Origin: a virus
Virus genome (UHGV): UHGV-0207576
Length of the DNA: 19,100 nucleotides
Reading direction: 5' to 3' (one strand)
Shown one piece after another: positions 6,942 to 18,301 of this stretch. The notes under the pieces were generated by a model. The model had not been told where the DNA came from. It saw only the letters and a program-made list of their open reading frames with translations, and ran no database searches. Position 1 is the first letter of the stretch; each line of letters opens with the position of its first letter. The translations under genes and the position numbers were made by a program.

Positions 6942-8336
6942 TTAACGGTATTTAAAGGTGCAGTAAGCCAGGATTGCCTTCAGTGCCTGCATATCACCAA
7001 CAAGCTCACCAACACCGAACCCCTCAAGAATTTTCGCCATAGACTCTAGGATTTTGTCCTGCTGGCCTTTGTCTTTTGTTGCTGCCAGACGCTTCTGAAG
7101 CTCCTGATATTGTTTGTTGTTCGCGGTGACTTTATCAGTGAGGCGTGAAAATGCTTCTATCGGATCAATGCCGTTTTCCATAGCTCGGGTCAACGTACCA
7201 GGTAGATCAATACCTTTGCCATCAATCGTGATGCTTTTCGCCCTTGTTGCTGATTCACTACTGAAAAGTTTGGCCAGCAGGTTTACAACGTTATTACCTG
7301 CTTCACTGCTGCTGCCTGCGGCAATCCCTGCGACCTCATTAAATGCCAGTAATTTCTGGAGTCCATCCAGTCCTTTCATTCCGGCGTTACCAGCTAACGC
7401 CATCTGAGGTCCAAGATATTCCGCCATATCCCGTAGCTCAAAATTACCCGCTTTACCTGCTGCGACAGCCATATTAAACATGGCCGGGAGGTCGTCATCT
7501 GTCAGTCCAAATGTTTGTTTAGCTTTGGCCGCCATAGTGACCAGATCGCGTGGAGATGCGCCGGATGCAGTAGCAAATTTCATAATCTGCGGTAAGAGAT
7601 TATTCGCGGTATCCCAGGAAAAAGCGCCGCTGGCCAACATCTCATTCATTGCTTCAGCTGCATCCTCTTTCGTTCCGCCACCATACGTTACCGCCGCGCG
7701 GATACTGTTTTTCAGCTTTTCACGCCCAAACTGCCTGCCTTCCAGACCACCATCACTGAACGCCGTGTTCGCCATCATGCTGAGCTGACGTTCATAACTC
7801 ATTTGATTTCTGACTGGTTGCGTCATAATGGCGGCCCCTGCCATAATTCCGCCGCCTATTGTCACGGCATTCCCGCCAAATGCAGCCGCACGGGCAAAAC
7901 GCCCCCGTTCAGGGATAACAGGCGTTTTCGCCATCTTCATCTGAGCCTGAGTGACGCCATCCAGTTCACGCTTGAGTGCCCGGGCTTTTTCCCGGGTGGC
8001 CTGCATGGCGCGCTCCTGCTCCTGCGCAGATTCAAAACCGGCGCGGGCCAGACGGTTATAGCTGGCAACCGTCTGATAAATTTCACGCCGGATCTCGCGT
8101 TCTGCACGAATACCGAGCGTTTCCCGGGCACGGGCGGCACGCTGTATCTCTTTTGCCGCCTTTTTCGTGCTGTTAACGCTTTCCTGCCCGGTACGCGTCT
8201 GCTCTGCGCCTGCCTTCCGGGTTGCCTTTGTTACACCTTCGGTGGCTTTGATAACCTGTTTTTGTCCCTTTTCCAGAACCTGCGAGGCTTCGTCCTTCGC
8301 AGTCAGGGTCATGCCAACTTTGAAATTACCGGCCAT
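6942..8336 (-). CDS. Tail tape measure protein
   Basis: 464 aa; Ala/Gly-rich, charged coiled-coil N-terminal region, central GGxxxG-type hydrophobic stretch (AAAFGGNAVTIGGGIMAGAAIM), typical tape measure composition; preceded by a chaperone gene with an overlapping alternative frame. Confidence 0.8.
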   Translation of the reverse strand: MAGNFKVGMTLTAKDEASQVLEKGQKQVIKATEGVTKATRKAGAEQTRTGQESVNSTKKAAKEIQRAARARETLGIRAEREIRREIYQTVASYNRLARAGFESAQEQERAMQATREKARALKRELDGVTQAQMKMAKTPVIPERGRFARAAAFGGNAVTIGGGIMAGAAIMTQPVRNQMSYERQLSMMANTAFSDGGLEGRQFGREKLKNSIRAAVTYGGGTKEDAAEAMNEMLASGAFSWDTANNLLPQIMKFATASGASPRDLVTMAAKAKQTFGLTDDDLPAMFNMAVAAGKAGNFELRDMAEYLGPQMALAGNAGMKGLDGLQKLLAFNEVAGIAAGSSSEAGNNVVNLLAKLFSSESATRAKSITIDGKGIDLPGTLTRAMENGIDPIEAFSRLTDKVTANNKQYQELQKRLAATKDKGQQDKILESMAKILEGFGVGELVGDMQALKAILAYCTFKYR

Positions 8337-8789: not shown

Positions 8790-9262
8790 GACCGGCAGAC
8801 GCAGCTCAAAGTTTTTATGAATGGTGCCGTTAAAAACCAGACCATCGGACAGTTCGCCGGTCTGTGTAGCGATACCTGTTCATAGAAACGCACTGCTTTA
8901 ACTAGTCCTTCCGGCACTACCGACGCTGGCGGGGCAGCATAAAGCTCATGCATTCCATCAGATAGCGAGTGACCTACATACTCACTGAACCCATCAACAC
9001 ACATGCATCCATCTTCAACAATGCATGACGCTACTGGCAAAGCCACCTCCCGTGCCTCCAGTTCTTCTGCCCACTCCCGAAGCCCTTCAATCTCACCATT
9101 ACGAGCTATCAGATCGCGACACAGTCTTTCGTTTTCATCCAGCAACGCCTGCACAACCTCCGGCGTAGCCGCAGCATGAAAAGCCTGTAGGTTCTGCCAC
9201 GTCGTATCCCCCTTCGCGGCCTCTGCCACCTCACGCAGTGCCTGATAGTTAATCTCGCTCAC
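8696..9262 (-). pseudogene. ead/Ea22-like protein, N-terminal ~120 aa intact, then runs across a probable deletion/recombination junction (~8880-8900) into out-of-frame chaperone sequence
   Basis: GTG start with AGGAGG RBS; N terminus MSEINYQALREVAEAAKGDTTWQNLQAFHAAATPEVVQALLDENERL matches the Ea22-like N-terminal pattern as recalled; C-terminal ~65 aa is Cys/Trp/Arg-rich and overlaps the chaperone frame. Confidence 0.45.
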
Positions 9263-12878: not shown

Positions 12879-13118
12879 TTATTGCCATACGACGGTGCAG
12901 CCGTCGATACAGGACGTTTTCACCACGCGGCGCAGGCCGCTGAATGTCTGGATGATTTCCGTTACCGGCCATACAGGGCCGCCCACGGGCGGGCAGGCAT
13001 AAACCACAGGTAAACGGTGATGTTGCCCAGTTACGCGACCGCCGGTGGTGTGGATGGCCACACGGGCACGGGAACGGACGGCGTTAATGGTCTGCTTGTC
13101 CATCATCTTGTTCTCCAT
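12879..13118 (-). CDS. Hypothetical early-region protein
   Basis: 79 aa ORF immediately downstream of the B-like gene. Confidence 0.4.
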   Translation of the reverse strand: MENKMMDKQTINAVRSRARVAIHTTGGRVTGQHHRLPVVYACPPVGGPVWPVTEIIQTFSGLRRVVKTSCIDGCTVVWQ

Positions 13119-14011
13119 CAGTGAATTAACATTTCTGCGAATTTATCAATGGCCTGCACACTGACCGGTGCATCGCTGATATCACAAATCCGGTACACAC
13201 CGCGAGCCAGTTTGAACAGGCGGCGGGCATTACCCAGTGAGCGTGCGTAGAGCGCCTCGCTGATTTCCGGTTCTGCTGCTTCCGGCATCAGCCCGGTAGC
13301 TATCTGGTTAAAATCTTCCTGCGACAGCGTATCGCCCAGGTTAAGCGCCAGCGCCACACGGCTGTATAACTGGGCGAACTCACCGCGACGTCCCTTGAGG
13401 TTAATCAGAAGGCGTGGCATACCCGCCAGGACAATCCCGATACCCGCTTTGTCATGCAGACGGCGCAGAACCTCCAGTGCGCGATAGGGGAGCAGTTCAG
13501 CCTCGTCCACCATCAGCAGGCGACCGGAATCACGCAGTTCTCGCACACATGCATCAATCAGTTCGTGGATATTGCCGCGAACTTTTACCCCCAGCTGGCG
13601 GCACAGCTCCTCAAGCAGTGTTCTGGCTGTATAGCCCGGGTCGGCTTCAATCAGGACCGCATCCCGGTTTCTGGCGGCGTATTCACGCAGAATCATTGTT
13701 TTGCCAAGACCTGCCGCGCCATACAGTACGCAGATTTCACATTCCAGGTGAGCATAGGCCAACACCTCCAGTCCTTTGGCAGCCATACCGGTGGCAACAA
13801 ATTTCGCTTTAATACGGCGGCTGTTTTCCTTTTCCCGCTCACGGGTCACAAAGGCAGAAATGCGTTCTTCAATATCAGCCATATCGCCCTGATATTTACC
13901 CTGTAAATACTGGTTGATAACGGCGCTGCTACGACCAATAGCACGGGCGACGTGGGTTTGCGTATAGCCGCGACGGGCCATTACGTCATTTAATTGCGTA
14001 ATTAAACTCAT
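13118..14011 (-). CDS. MuB-like transposition target-DNA activator (AAA+ ATPase with N-terminal HTH)
   Basis: 297 aa; N-terminal HTH (YTQTHVARAIGRSSAVINQYLQGK), Walker A GAAGLGKT, Walker B LLMVDEAE; lies directly after the transposase gene as in Mu. Confidence 0.85.
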   Translation of the reverse strand: MSLITQLNDVMARRGYTQTHVARAIGRSSAVINQYLQGKYQGDMADIEERISAFVTREREKENSRRIKAKFVATGMAAKGLEVLAYAHLECEICVLYGAAGLGKTMILREYAARNRDAVLIEADPGYTARTLLEELCRQLGVKVRGNIHELIDACVRELRDSGRLLMVDEAELLPYRALEVLRRLHDKAGIGIVLAGMPRLLINLKGRRGEFAQLYSRVALALNLGDTLSQEDFNQIATGLMPEAAEPEISEALYARSLGNARRLFKLARGVYRICDISDAPVSVQAIDKFAEMLIH

Positions 14012-14029: not shown

Positions 14030-16072
14030 TTAACGGTTGTTTGTGCCGTTTTTCTTTAAATTGCGTTCGCGTTCAGATGCGAATAAATAAAGTTCTTCTT
14101 TTTCCTTTTTCTCCAGGCGTTCCAGTCCATATCCCAGATTAAAGTCAGGCTTCTGCGTAATGGCCGGGGTAAGCTCGCGTTTAGCCTCTTCGATTTTCTG
14201 CGTGGCCCGTGCAATGCGGCCCTTGACGCGTTTCTCCAGTTTTTGTTCGATAACTGGTTTAGCGAAGGCATCAACCTTGTTACCGTTCCAGATGGCATCG
14301 CAGATATAAGAGCCATCAGCCCGCCGGACAATGACGCTGTTTGCATCATGAATATCGTAACTGACCCTGACTTCATTCCCGTGCTCTGCGGCCAGATCAT
14401 ATGAGTAATAAATATTGTTGAATAACTGAATTTCCCCGCGAAATGTTTTGCGCGTCACTTCCGGCCTGAACATTTCATGCAGTTCTTCCGGCGACAGGAA
14501 ATCAATTTCAACATTCTGCTCTTTTATCAGTTTCCGGCGATACGCTGCCGGGCTGTAATGCTCGCCATCCTCTTTGCGAGGAAGGCTGCTGTGTGGCCGG
14601 TTGTTATAGCGTCTGACCTCCAGCTCTATGGCTGCCATCAGTTGCTCAAAGGTAGGGATTTCATCCCTCGCCTTAACCTGCCGTTTTGTCAGCTCTTTCC
14701 CTTTGTGGGTGGCCTTAATGGCTGACTGCATAATCCGTTGCTGCATCATTACGGTTTCCTTGTCTGCATCCCTTGCGCAGTACGTTTGGAAACTCAGGGC
14801 CACGTCTTTGGGTATTTCCTTGTTAACCCTTTCAATCACCCCGCGCCCCTGCGGGTTACCTGGTATCCCCGTGTGATGTTCCACACCCAGACGGGGCAGA
14901 ATCCCGGTAATATCGGCATCAAGCACCAGGTTTTTTTCGCCGCCCCCGTTATCGGAGTAATAAATCAGCGGTATCCCGTGCTGTGCCATGCCGTAACGTA
15001 ACGCATCAGCAACGGCTATCACGTTCTCCGACAGGGACAGTGACCAGCCCACAATAAAGCGTTGTCCTGCATCCATAACCAGCGTCACTTCTGGCCGGAA
15101 AATATTGCCGGTCAGGGGGTTAAACGCGGTCATTTTCATACAGTGACCATCCCCGACCCATACCGCATTAACCGGTAATGATGTCCACTCGCGCCGCACA
15201 AAGGGATTGAGCGAACGCCAGGCTGAACCTGTGGAGCGGAAACGCTCTTTAACAATCACCGGGACGCTGCTTAACACCCGTCTTACTGCGTGAACTGAAG
15301 GCAGTGCCGCCAGCATTCCCGCATCGTTCGCGTGTTTTTCATGCCACCAGGCTGAAAACTCGCGATACGCATATTCAACGGTCGGGCGCTTCCATGAGCG
15401 ATAGAACATAAAGAAATCGCTCAACCACCAGACCTGCTCCCACGGTGTTCCCTTATGATGACCGGGAGCCAGTAACGCCAGTAACTGATTGGCATCACCG
15501 CGCGCCATCACCCAGCTGGAGTACCAACTATCCAGGCTGCCTGTGCTGACACCGGTTCGCTTTCCCTGACGTGCATTTGCAGTATTAGCTGCTTCGATAA
15601 TGCGGTCAGGTAACGCCCCCATGCGCACACCATCAACGATGTGCTTTAACGCGGCCTTCCTTGTCATTCCGGCGTATTCACGCAGTTTATGCACTTCAGT
15701 AGCCAGCAATATCCGCGCATCAGCGATGGCCTTTTGCTTGTCAGTCAGTGCCTGGACTTCGCGTAATGCCAGTTCCGGGCATTTGACCATCACCTCCAGT
15801 TCATCGCGAACGGCGACGTTTTTAACTGCCTTCTGCTCAACCACGGCGGGCAGTTGCGTATCTTCCAGGACCTGATGGGTCAGGCGCTTACGTAAAACTT
15901 TCTGCGCTTCAGCGGGCAGGCAGTCGATGTGATACTCGAATGCTTTGGTGCCTTCACGCTTGCGCTTCCATTCCGGGTGCGTCTCTGTGATCCGATTGAG
16001 CGTCCAGCGCACCCCCTGAACTGTACCGGGCAAACCAGGAAGACCGGCCAGCTCATTGGCTGAATAAAACAT
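14030..16072 (-). CDS. MuA-like DDE transposase
   Basis: 680 aa; N terminus LAGLPGLPGTVQGVRW...TKAFEYHIDCLPAEAQ parallels the MuA end-binding winged-helix domain (ANLPGLPKTSAGV...KAIEYNANSLPVEAK); central DDE region with VWVGDGH; TAATG overlap with Ner-like gene. Confidence 0.9.
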   Translation of the reverse strand: MFYSANELAGLPGLPGTVQGVRWTLNRITETHPEWKRKREGTKAFEYHIDCLPAEAQKVLRKRLTHQVLEDTQLPAVVEQKAVKNVAVRDELEVMVKCPELALREVQALTDKQKAIADARILLATEVHKLREYAGMTRKAALKHIVDGVRMGALPDRIIEAANTANARQGKRTGVSTGSLDSWYSSWVMARGDANQLLALLAPGHHKGTPWEQVWWLSDFFMFYRSWKRPTVEYAYREFSAWWHEKHANDAGMLAALPSVHAVRRVLSSVPVIVKERFRSTGSAWRSLNPFVRREWTSLPVNAVWVGDGHCMKMTAFNPLTGNIFRPEVTLVMDAGQRFIVGWSLSLSENVIAVADALRYGMAQHGIPLIYYSDNGGGEKNLVLDADITGILPRLGVEHHTGIPGNPQGRGVIERVNKEIPKDVALSFQTYCARDADKETVMMQQRIMQSAIKATHKGKELTKRQVKARDEIPTFEQLMAAIELEVRRYNNRPHSSLPRKEDGEHYSPAAYRRKLIKEQNVEIDFLSPEELHEMFRPEVTRKTFRGEIQLFNNIYYSYDLAAEHGNEVRVSYDIHDANSVIVRRADGSYICDAIWNGNKVDAFAKPVIEQKLEKRVKGRIARATQKIEEAKRELTPAITQKPDFNLGYGLERLEKKEKEELYLFASERERNLKKNGTNNR

Positions 16073-16308
16073 TACGCCGCCTTACTGGCATACCGGCTTG
16101 GCCAGATCTCCGCAGGTTCCACACCAATAGCATCGGCTATGATGCGTTCATATTTAGGGCATGAGCGATACAGTGCATTTTTTAAAGAGTCTTTTTTTAG
16201 ACCAGCGCGTTCAGAAAGTTCACGCAATGTAAAACCTTTGGTGTGCACAGCGGCAACGATGTACTCGCGGTGCCAGTCTTTGTTCATTACTTCATTTCTA
16301 ACCATCAT
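16072..16308 (-). CDS. Ner-like DNA-binding regulator (Ner/Nlp family)
   Basis: About 78 aa from ATGATG at 16303-16308 with AAGG RBS; WHR...LSERAGLKKDSLKNALYRSCPKYERIIADAIGVEPAEIWPSRY closely parallels Mu Ner. Confidence 0.8.
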   Translation of the reverse strand: MMVRNEVMNKDWHREYIVAAVHTKGFTLRELSERAGLKKDSLKNALYRSCPKYERIIADAIGVEPAEIWPSRYASKAA

Positions 16309-16490
16309 TAGGTTACCCTTAAAAGTTATCCGTGCGGATAACACCGCCGTGTTATCCCTTCGGATATAAGTATTGATCCATATATAGCTCATGTAAAGCA
16401 AAAATAGCCCTTTCTTTGTATTTTCTTTTTGCTTTTGGTCTTTATATGGTTTTTGTAATTAAAATCAATAAGTTATAGAGGAAAGAAAAA
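16309..16490. promoter_or_regulatory. Divergent early control region (Pe/Pc-like) with candidate operators
   Basis: Two palindromes, GTTATCC-N4-GGATAAC at 16325-16342 and GTTATCC-N4-GGATA at 16351-16366, centres 26 bp apart; CTTT-rich repeats 16411-16436; TTTACA and TATA-like hexamers on both strands. Confidence 0.5.
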
Positions 16491-17138
16491 ATGACTAGAA
16501 ATGATGATGCTTTTTCTTTTGTCGACCGGGGAAAAGAAAGTTTCAGAGAGCGTTTAGTAAAGCTGATAGGTAACCGTAGTGTCAGAACTGCTGCGAGTGA
16601 TTGGGGAATCCCCCCTTCAACCTTAAACAACTACATTCATAAAGGAACAGAGCCTTCTTTTAAAATAGCTTGCCTTATCTCAGATAAAGAACAAGTGAGC
16701 TTAAATTGGCTCGCTTACGGTGAGGAACCCATCGCCAAAGAAAGTTCTCTATCAAATCAAACAGCGCAGCCTTCTCCCGATATTACAAACGAGCTAGTTA
16801 ACGAGTTATTGAAAAGAGCGTCCACAGAAGATAAGGAACAGTTGATAAGTGCAATATGCGATATGGGCATTAAAGGAATCTTGGAACGCCTACAGCAACC
16901 CACCAGGCAAACTAAGCAAGCCGATAGCGAACTTGAGGAGCAAAGAAAGGCCATTCAAAGCCTGAACATCAGGCAATCGCTTAAAGACGCTGTTTGCATG
17001 GCATTAGCTGGCGATGAGGAAAATGACAAAGAGATTTTGCGCCGCGCCAAAGCCATTTTCTGTGCTGGAACACCAGGTGATCGCGTTCCCGTCACACCGG
17101 AGCAAGAAACTAAGCCTGTAAACAAGAAATCAGCATAA
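16491..17138 (+). CDS. Prophage repressor (c-like) with CI-type HTH domain
   Basis: 215 aa; N-terminal ...SDWGIPPSTLNNYIHKGTEPSFKIACLISDKEQVSLNWLAYGE matches the 186/P2 CI-repressor HTH pattern; divergent from ner-A-B and pointing to the prophage end, as Mu c does. Confidence 0.75.
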   Translation: MTRNDDAFSFVDRGKESFRERLVKLIGNRSVRTAASDWGIPPSTLNNYIHKGTEPSFKIACLISDKEQVSLNWLAYGEEPIAKESSLSNQTAQPSPDITNELVNELLKRASTEDKEQLISAICDMGIKGILERLQQPTRQTKQADSELEEQRKAIQSLNIRQSLKDAVCMALAGDEENDKEILRRAKAIFCAGTPGDRVPVTPEQETKPVNKKSA

Positions 17139-17298
17139 GCGCCTCGTTTTGGCGGGGCGTGTGCTGTTAGCTAATCAGCAATAACCACAACAAAACCGAA
17201 CACAACAGATGAGAACAAATTGAGGAAAACGGGTAAGGATAAAACTCTTTTTAAAAGCATTTAAAACCCGTTAAGTTTGTAGCAGAACCAGATCAAAA

Positions 17299-17450
17299 GC
17301 GCCCAGAAAAAAGCGCAAAAAAAAGCGTTTTTGGTCATTTCTCACAAATCCGCCCAGAATCACGCTAAATCACCACACCCCGCGCCACACAAGGCTTGCC
17401 GGTTCTACCAGGCTGCACTAACTCCGCCCAGAATTGATCACTACCCCACA
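17299..17450 (-). repeat. Prophage left end (attL-like) with three direct transposase-binding-type repeats
   Basis: Plus-strand cores (g/c)cgcccagaa at 17299-17308, 17350-17359 and 17424-17433 (TTCTGGGCG in element orientation); spacing resembles Mu L3, L2, L1; sequence ends ...cca-ca at 17448-17450. Confidence 0.55.
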
Positions 17451-18025
17451 ATTCCCGGAAGATTTAGTGGATTAAAAAGAAGATTGATATTAAGCATTGA
17501 TATTATCGAAGGAAACTTTAGGAGACTCTCATTTTTTTGAATCGCAGCAAAAATGCTCCCGACAGGATGTATATAATTTTGTTCATAGTATATAGTCCTT
17601 AAATAGTGAATAACCAACCTGTTTTTTATACTGATCAAATTGGTCATTTTTTCTGGGCGAAATACAGAAGTGACATCCATTCCAATAAAATCTTTATTTA
17701 TACCTCTTATCCGAATTTCACTACCATAAAGATTATTAATTATTACTCTATATTTAACATTGTCCTGCAGATATGTATCAAAACTAAGTGCTGGCGCTCC
17801 TGGCTTTGAGGCATCATAGTTAATGTTAGACATATAGGCAATCATATAATTAAAGTTTGATTCTGCTATTTCATCGCAGTCACATTGACCCGTTGATATA
17901 AAGAAAGTGAGTGCTGTCATAGTAGACTGCAGCCTTTCTTTAAAAGAGTCGAAAGCCAGGCTTTTAATATTTAAATCACCATAATTACTCTGTATTAAGT
18001 TTGTAGAAAACATCTCCCGCCTCAT
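17441..18025 (-). pseudogene. AT-rich host ORF apparently interrupted at its 3' end by the prophage insertion (possibly ydjO-like, unverified)
   Basis: 194-codon ORF begins 277 bp from cedA and reads straight into the predicted prophage terminus, stopping 3 codons inside it; markedly AT-rich compared with the prophage. Confidence 0.45.
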
Positions 18026-18271
18026 ATTGTTAACAAAATTATTATCTCATTTAAATCTAAGTCATTTACAATATAAGTTTAAGAGCGACGCCACAGGATG
18101 AACTATCAAAAATAGCTCATCATGATTAGCAAAACTTAATCATTTTAAAATAAATAAACAATTAAAGAAAAAAGATCACTTATTTATAGCAATAGATCGT
18201 CAAAGGCAGCTTTTTGTTACAGGTGGTTTGAATGAATGTAGCAACGAAATACAGAATTTCAGGTCATGTAA

Positions 18272-18290
18272 CTCCCGGCAAAACCGGGAG
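18272..18290 (-). terminator. Hairpin downstream of cedA (possible terminator)
   Basis: ctcccgg-caaaa-ccgggag, 7-bp stem, 12 nt after the cedA stop; no clear T tract. Confidence 0.3.
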
Positions 18291-18301
18291 GTATGTAATC
18301 C

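Follow-up and report, generated by a model that had tools for sequence, protein, structure and literature searches.

The probable left end of a Mu-like transposable prophage in Escherichia coli ydjO and a likely 4-bp target-site duplication in its family

Phage Mu duplicates 5 bp of its target upon insertion, which is the textbook value. Each end of Mu contains three MuA sites with differing spacings, each of which is bound by a MuA monomer, and L1, R1, and R2 are enough to form a stable synaptic complex (PMC3145075). In published work, Mu and the Firmicute phage Mushu both duplicate 5 bp, and B3-type phages duplicate 6 bp (PMC8705779, PMC5883640). Mu-like transposable phages are referred to as 'Saltoviridae' sensu Hulo et al. 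in the part of PMC7761591 that cites that work. A literature search of open-access papers found no report of a 4-bp duplication in transposable (Mu-like) phages.

We analyzed a 19,100-nucleotide sequence, the virus genome UHGV-0207576, which is called the window in this study. An earlier note, made from the letters of the sequence, had proposed that a Mu-like prophage ends in a ...CA terminus at about 17448-17450, with three repeats inside the end and a split host gene outside it. Comparison with E. coli K-12 and a megablast search placed the left end at 17450 (…CCCCACA), and from 17451 onward the window corresponds to K-12 ydjO-cedA-katE with 99.9% identity. The K-12 sequence across the insertion point is ...CACTTCC C|ATTCCCGGAAG..., and the K-12 base facing the window A at 17450 is C. 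The proposed terminus was thus fixed at 17450 by the edge of the K-12 homology and by the related prophages described below. Read on the minus strand, the left end is TGTGGGGTAGTGATCAATTCTGGGCGG..., and TGTGGGGT forms the first bases in nine independent insertions, with a variable preceding base. The GC content decreases from 0.42-0.55 in the prophage to 0.29-0.34 over 17450-18200, in agreement with the turn to AT-rich DNA claimed for the outside of the end.

To define the junction, the region from 17200 to 18300 was used as a megablast query against 5,426 complete RefSeq E. coli genomes, and 4,311 of them matched. Among the matches listed in which the ydjO side was covered, all begin at query base 252, which is window position 17451. 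The junction itself was spanned by none of the 5,426 genomes, and the element in ydjO was absent from this set by megablast. Based on these results and on the exact terminus with the transposase and MuB-like genes beside it, we interpret 17298-17450 as attL, the repressor-proximal end of a Mu-like transposable prophage inserted in ydjO, with a probability of about 0.9. The features at the junction are as follows.

17449..17450, minus strand (5'-TG; ...CA-3' on the plus strand): terminal dinucleotide of the left end; K-12 homology begins at 17451; putative transposase cleavage and strand-transfer site
17451..18013, minus strand: 5' part of ydjO, nucleotides 1-563, with 99.9% identity to K-12 ydjO
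17451..17454, plus strand: predicted 4-bp target-site duplication ATTC, based on seven of seven relatives

The insertion point lies after nucleotide 563 of ydjO, and 80 of the 267 K-12 codons, encoding GMGSGVLEDIMS...PLPA, are missing. In the K-12 locus, tcyP is located on the far side of ydjO-cedA and katE beyond cedA. The disrupted gene is seen in the window as a 194-codon ORF (17441-18025, minus strand), while the annotated K-12 start of ydjO corresponds to 18013. The fused ORF reads ...NLPG, followed by IVG and a stop, that is, three altered codons and a TAG whose position (17441-17443) is inside the prophage. The distance from the ORF start to the cedA stop (18302) is 277 bp. These results agree with the claims that a host ORF located 277 bp from cedA runs into the prophage and stops after three codons. 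The alignment to K-12 ydjO-cedA suggested in the earlier note identified this ORF as the 5' part of ydjO, and a natural end of the ORF at 17441 is excluded because the K-12 gene continues for 80 codons. An identical 190-aa truncated YdjO product is called on six public contigs. The insertion accounts for a ydjO pseudogene and is in itself an ordinary event.

Related prophages were collected with the terminal 1,051 bp of the prophage as the left-end query. Fifty complete E. coli genomes matched, and a more sensitive left-end search gave 60. Among the 25 matches listed of the 50 genomes, all stop at the equivalent of 17450, each in a different host gene, and no homologous end extended past 17450 among the related ends examined. 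The host sites of the relatives include eutC (E2348/69), yfcC, mhpT, alx, ypdF, positions near melR and trg, and RHS, PAAR, and TonB-receptor genes. The relatives examined are thus inserted at many unrelated chromosomal sites. No host pseudo-sites that could serve as a targeting cue were found in 2.8 kb of flanks from seven other insertions.

Both junctions were taken from seven complete prophages. The base before TGTGGGGT is T, T, C, A, G, A, C, and G in the window and the seven relatives. The right ends of the seven relatives all finish with ...CCCAGAAAAAAACGCGAAGTTACA (...GTTACA), and the next base is variable. The termini are therefore 5'-TG...CA-3', defined to the base at the left end in the window and from the seven relatives at the right end. 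The prophage in eutC of E2348/69 (NC_011601.1 2715936-2751670) is closely related to that of the window, with identities of 99.3% for the left end and 98.5% for the transposase and with the same termini and L1-L3. At 35.7 kb, the E2348/69 copy is complete and carries the head, lysis, and tail genes, whereas the window's copy in ydjO is internally deleted. In TUM1881, the two prophage flanks are annotated differently (an scpC fragment and a 'hypothetical protein' fragment) with a clean TATC duplication common to both; this difference is probably a matter of annotation and not a rearrangement.

All seven complete relatives, including E2348/69, showed a duplication of exactly 4 bp (CACT, TATC, GAGA, TTTG, GACA, ATTC, and GGTG), and not the 5 bp of Mu-type or the 6 bp of B3-type phages. 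As a control, the same procedure was applied to a genuine Mu prophage whose insertion site is shared by E. coli W and strain B-766, and a 5-bp duplication, GCCGC, was obtained. The earlier note had suggested a Mu-type 5-bp duplication (ATTCC, 17451-17455) for the ydjO insertion, and this proposal is probably wrong in view of the relatives and the Mu control. Moving the terminus by one base at either end to rescue 5 bp was also considered and rejected, as TG and CA do not change among the ends compared, in contrast to the bases flanking them.

A true Mu-type insertion with ATTCC duplicated, to which the 4-bp pattern of the relatives does not apply, is nevertheless the best surviving alternative, although an unlikely one. 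A 5-bp duplication is known from Mu and several Mu-like phages (PMC8705779; PMC5883640; the Mu control), and the right junction of the ydjO copy lies outside the window. Against this, the seven relatives are uniform at 4 bp, and a fifth duplicated base would have to be an A before the left end, matching the terminal A of the right end; this A is present in only two of the seven. The two readings differ in the right junction that they predict, which is ...CCCATTCC|TGTAAC for 5 bp and ...CCCATTC|TGTAAC for 4 bp. Neither predicted junction was present in the genome, metagenome, and viral contig collections searched, and the left junction was present once (ENA ERZ1034680 NODE_60). The right end of the ydjO copy may be unassembled, altered, or deleted. 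A search with the C-terminal 80 aa of YdjO recovered unrelated ydjO pseudogenes only; an 80-aa cluster representative was rejected as the ydjO remainder of this insertion, as it derives from a frameshifted ydjO. Taken together, we consider it likely that this family is a natural Mu-type system that keeps the Mu end layout and cuts its target with a 4-bp stagger. A stagger other than that of Mu is plausible, given how distant the transposase is from MuA.

We then examined the repeats inside the end. A search of the whole window on both strands located TTCTGGGCG as three exact copies on the minus strand, at 17300-17308, 17351-17359, and 17425-17433. Counted from the terminal A at 17450, these cores are at 143-151, 92-100, and 18-26 bp, which confirms the three direct cores that had been noticed at about these distances. 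By our own arithmetic, about 0.15 exact copies of a 9-mer are expected by chance in 19.1 kb on both strands. Allowing up to one mismatch, TTCTGGGCG gave 14 matches in comparison with 4.9 ± 2.1 in shuffled sequences, and none of 200 shuffles reached 14. A repeat search placed the three minus-strand sites, which are spaced 51 and 74 bp apart, in a single 15-nt family. We assigned the elements of the end as follows.

17423..17445, minus strand: L1, putative transposase-binding site; core at 17425-17433; the extent of about 22 bp is approximate
17372..17422, minus strand: L1-L2 spacer, nearly invariant in eight relatives
17349..17371, minus strand: L2, second putative transposase-binding site; core at 17351-17359, 92-100 bp from the end
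17298..17320, minus strand: L3, third putative transposase-binding site; core at 17300-17308, 143-151 bp from the end

Alignment of eight left ends showed that approximately the first 164 bp are almost invariant and that strong divergence begins approximately 13 bp beyond the L3 core, which fits a functional block extending from L1 to L3. L1 is nearly invariant in the eight relatives. The L1-L2 spacer is partly retained even in the divergent ends of C5, E423, and UMNF18, and it is a candidate for host-factor bending and/or packaging signals, by analogy with Mu. GCG is found 5-7 bp from the core, toward the terminus, in L2, L3, and the R1-R3 sites of the relatives, and GTG is found in L1. This suggests a bipartite site of about 20 bp composed of GCG or GTG and the core. 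The sites also form look-alike pairs (L1/R2, L2/R3, and L3/R1). Binding of the transposase to L1-L3 is predicted from their position, repetition, and conservation.

Cores are also present at the right ends of the seven complete relatives, at 18-25, 40-49, and, inverted, 68-75, so that the sequence pattern is of several end repeats with unequal spacing, three at each end. We located the cores on the Mu genome (NC_000929) and on the E. coli prophage family by one script. The positions, counted inward from each terminus, are listed for Mu (YRCGAAA) and then for the E. coli family (TCTGGRY).

L1: Mu 20-26; E. coli family 19-25
L2: Mu 125-131; E. coli family 93-99
L3: Mu 165-171; E. coli family 144-150
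R1: Mu 20-26; E. coli family 19-25
R2: Mu 42-48; E. coli family 41-47
R3 (inverted): Mu 57-63; E. coli family 68-74

The offset of L1 from the terminus is the same as that of R1 in the relatives and as those of L1 and R1 in Mu. The right ends, with this offset, a 22-bp step, and an inverted third site, and the Mu measurement strengthen the L1/L2/L3 reading of the earlier note.

The right ends also bear on the possibility that the repeats are operators for the prophage repressor or a Ner-like protein, or that L3 is a transcription terminator. Such roles could be imagined, as the repeats are located just downstream of the repressor gene and, on the minus strand, L3 shares bases with a terminator-like hairpin that precedes T residues. 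We regard them as improbable, more so than a 5-bp duplication, since the same core occurs three times at the opposite end of the relatives, approximately 35 kb away, with the first at 19-25 and the third inverted as in Mu. Moreover, the TTATCCGNNCGGATAA palindromes within 16325-16366 are better operator candidates, and the hairpin has only six pairs.

The divergent left ends are informative for the core sequence. In C5, E423, and UMNF18, the left-end cores are TTCTGGAC, TTCTGGAT, and either ATCTGGAC or TTCTGGAC, located at the same three positions. In E423, this variant left end is paired with a right end of the standard type, and the 4-bp duplication (GGTG) is clean. This mixture of end types indicates that the enzyme tolerates both core forms, and only TCTGG is invariant. 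The exact recognition sequence is thus uncertain, with only TCTGG apparently strictly required. Co-variation of the site sequence with the transposase, considered from the G-to-A change in all three cores of C5, was rejected by the combination found in E423.

Several other features were observed around the repeats. A fourth exact copy of TTCTGGGCG (17651-17659, plus strand) does not belong to the array; it lies in the host ydjO DNA, 201-209 bp beyond the prophage end. It has 13 nt (TTTTTTCTGGGCG) in common with the L3/R1 site type. Since it lies within DNA that is 99.9% identical to K-12, this copy is host sequence, and its presence in ydjO is probably due to chance. The weak terminator-like hairpin overlapping L3 is GCGCTTTTTTCTGGGCGC (17299-17316, minus strand), with six pairs and a T-rich stretch next to it; it faces transcription from ydjO and might reduce the read-through that enters the prophage. 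The 8-mer GCAAGCCT, with GT.GTG after it, is common to the L1-L2 spacers of this end (17391-17398, about 53-60 from the terminus) and of Mu (85-92). This likeness may be due to chance, with a rough estimate of about 6% for two such spacers.

The genes beside the end were annotated by domain and PHROG matches.

16491..17138, plus strand: CI-type repressor (Pfam Phage_CI_repr; phrog_3037 transcriptional repressor, 4.5e-58)
16072..16308, minus strand: Ner-like early regulator (Pfam HTH_35, 2.2e-25; phrog_769)
14030..16072, minus strand: MuA-type DDE transposase, 680 aa (Mu-transpos_C 1.5e-16, HTH_Tnp_Mu_1 1.5e-10, weak rve)
13118..14011, minus strand: MuB-type AAA+ transposition/target-capture protein, 297 aa (Pfam AAA_22, TniB)

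The transposase matched phrog_310 'transposase' at 4.6e-195 and the MuB-type protein matched phrog_296 'DNA transposition protein' at 2.3e-104. A MuA-type transposase gene therefore adjoins a gene for a MuB-type AAA+ activator. The repressor gene reads toward the prophage end, in the position of Mu c, and the Ner-like protein is annotated as 78 aa in relatives. The order from the end (attL, repressor, ner, A, and B) is that of Mu. Integration by site-specific recombination, with ydjO providing a preferred att site and the repeats acting as arm-type recombinase sites, is highly improbable: integrase-type phages also have repeated arm sites near a prophage end, but no integrase gene is located near this end, where a DDE transposase and a MuB-like ATPase are encoded, the relatives occupy many unrelated genes with unrelated 4-bp flanks, and no complete RefSeq E. 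coli genome has the element in ydjO.

Between a promoter-like site (16397-16369, minus strand) and the start codon of the ner-like gene, the palindrome TTATCCGNNCGGATAA occurs twice (16325-16340 and 16351-16366). The paired palindromes probably serve as operators of the early promoter and may also belong to a transposition enhancer.

The window copy was compared with the full-length E2348/69 prophage. A region of 16.6 kb (10513-27127 of the extracted E2348/69 locus), containing late regulators, lysis genes, head genes, and the tail sheath, is missing, with the junction at window position 8873/8874. A second loss of 1.4 kb (29040-30407 of the locus; junction near 6963-6966) joins a portion of the tape-measure gene to the gene that follows and thereby creates a 464-aa ORF (6942-8336, minus strand), which is called identically on 12 public contigs. 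The size and modules of Mu-like phages (about 35-39 kb, Mor/GemA, head, and tail) are present in the E2348/69 relative (35.7 kb, with Mor, a gp16-family protein, terminase, portal, and sheath) and not in the window copy. The window copy is a defective remnant of roughly 18 kb that has lost approximately 18 kb and cannot make virions. The occurrence of the deleted prophage in ydjO in several public assemblies indicates that it is fixed in a lineage.

From the E2348/69 comparison, the right end is expected to lie outside the window, approximately 0.4 kb to the left of its first base. The contigs found by exact-protein look-ups with the truncated YdjO or the 464-aa fusion all break in an invertible tail-fibre segment. 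This segment, at 1-1356 of the window, contains two opposed tail-fibre assembly genes and a gp53-like gene. It corresponds to 36253-37553 of the E2348/69 locus and is nearly identical in many P2-like prophages, and short-read contigs break there. In the E2348/69 copy, the right end retains only about 30 codons of what looks, from its sequence, like a Gin/Pin-type invertase gene, annotated in RefSeq as a partial hypothetical protein.

Alongside the observed exact terminus, ydjO disruption, conserved 3+3 geometry, scattered sites, and 4-bp duplications of the relatives, we propose the following mechanism. The element would have entered ydjO by DDE transposition, with L1, L2, and L3 as the binding sites of its own MuA-type transposase. 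L1 would position the catalytic subunit on the terminal CA (17449-17450), and L2 and L3, with the three matching sites of the right end, would help to assemble the synaptic complex, while the MuB-type ATPase would deliver the target DNA. Strand transfer staggered by 4 bp would then repeat ATTC (17451-17454) at the other junction. A right end with ...GAAGTTACA is expected beside the 3' part of ydjO, the matching right end of this copy being presumed from the relatives. If that end is intact and the duplication is 4 bp, the predicted junction is ...CACTTCCCATTC|TGTAACTTCGCG....

This is a known kind of element, and what is modestly new is an apparent 4-bp duplication combined with the Mu end geometry, together with base-exact ends. 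The analysis provides base-exact ends and probable transposase-binding sites for a family that about 1% of the complete E. coli genomes carry, among them that of the EPEC reference strain E2348/69. Searches for transposable prophages by scars of 5 or 6 bp would set the borders of this E. coli family incorrectly. A MuA-type enzyme with the Mu end layout and another stagger would be a useful comparison for structural work on target bending in the transpososome. If true, the 4-bp stagger gives a comparative handle on what sets the stagger and the site specificity in MuA-like transposases, the latter because the ends tolerate the cores TTCTGGGC and TTCTGGAC in one functional element.

Among known systems, the closest in layout is Mu. 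Both have TG...CA termini and three sites per end, with the first core 19-26 bp from both termini, an R1-R2 step of 22 bp, an inverted R3, and direct L2 and L3 set apart from L1. In both, the repressor gene adjoins attL and is transcribed outward, and ner, A, and B come next. They differ in the core (YRCGAAA in Mu and TTCTGGGCG here), in the core spacings of L1-L2 (105 and 74 bp) and L2-L3 (40 and 51 bp), in the repressor (Mu c-type and CI-type), and in the duplication (5 and 4 bp). A blastn search with the left-end DNA found no match in 50,697 phage records, including Mu. The transposase matched the MuA structures 4FCY and 1BCM with E values of about 6e-4 in the catalytic core only, and all 251 tblastn matches to it were below 60% identity. 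The nucleotide and close protein similarity that unites the Muvirus members Mu, D108, and SfMu is not found here. In its mode of action the element resembles Mu, and it falls within the broad group of Mu-like transposable phages without being a Muvirus; the mechanistic details are drawn by analogy.

The nearest phage transposases are those of Pseudomonas VW-6B (49.6% identity), Mannheimia vB_MhM_3927AP2 (40%), and D3112/JBD-type phages (about 30%), over more than 90% of the length. VW-6B, 3927AP2, and the D3112/B3-type phages have the transposable-phage lifestyle in common with this element, whereas their hosts are different and their DNA has no similarity to this left end. For the stagger, XMRV integration produces 4-bp duplications (PMC2857682). 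The retroviral integrases of MLV and XMRV, like the proposed mechanism, perform DDE strand transfer at CA-3' ends with a 4-bp stagger, an analogy that applies to the stagger only. Unlike this element, they have no multi-site ends and no MuB-like partner, and the protein relation is remote, as seen in the weak rve-core match.
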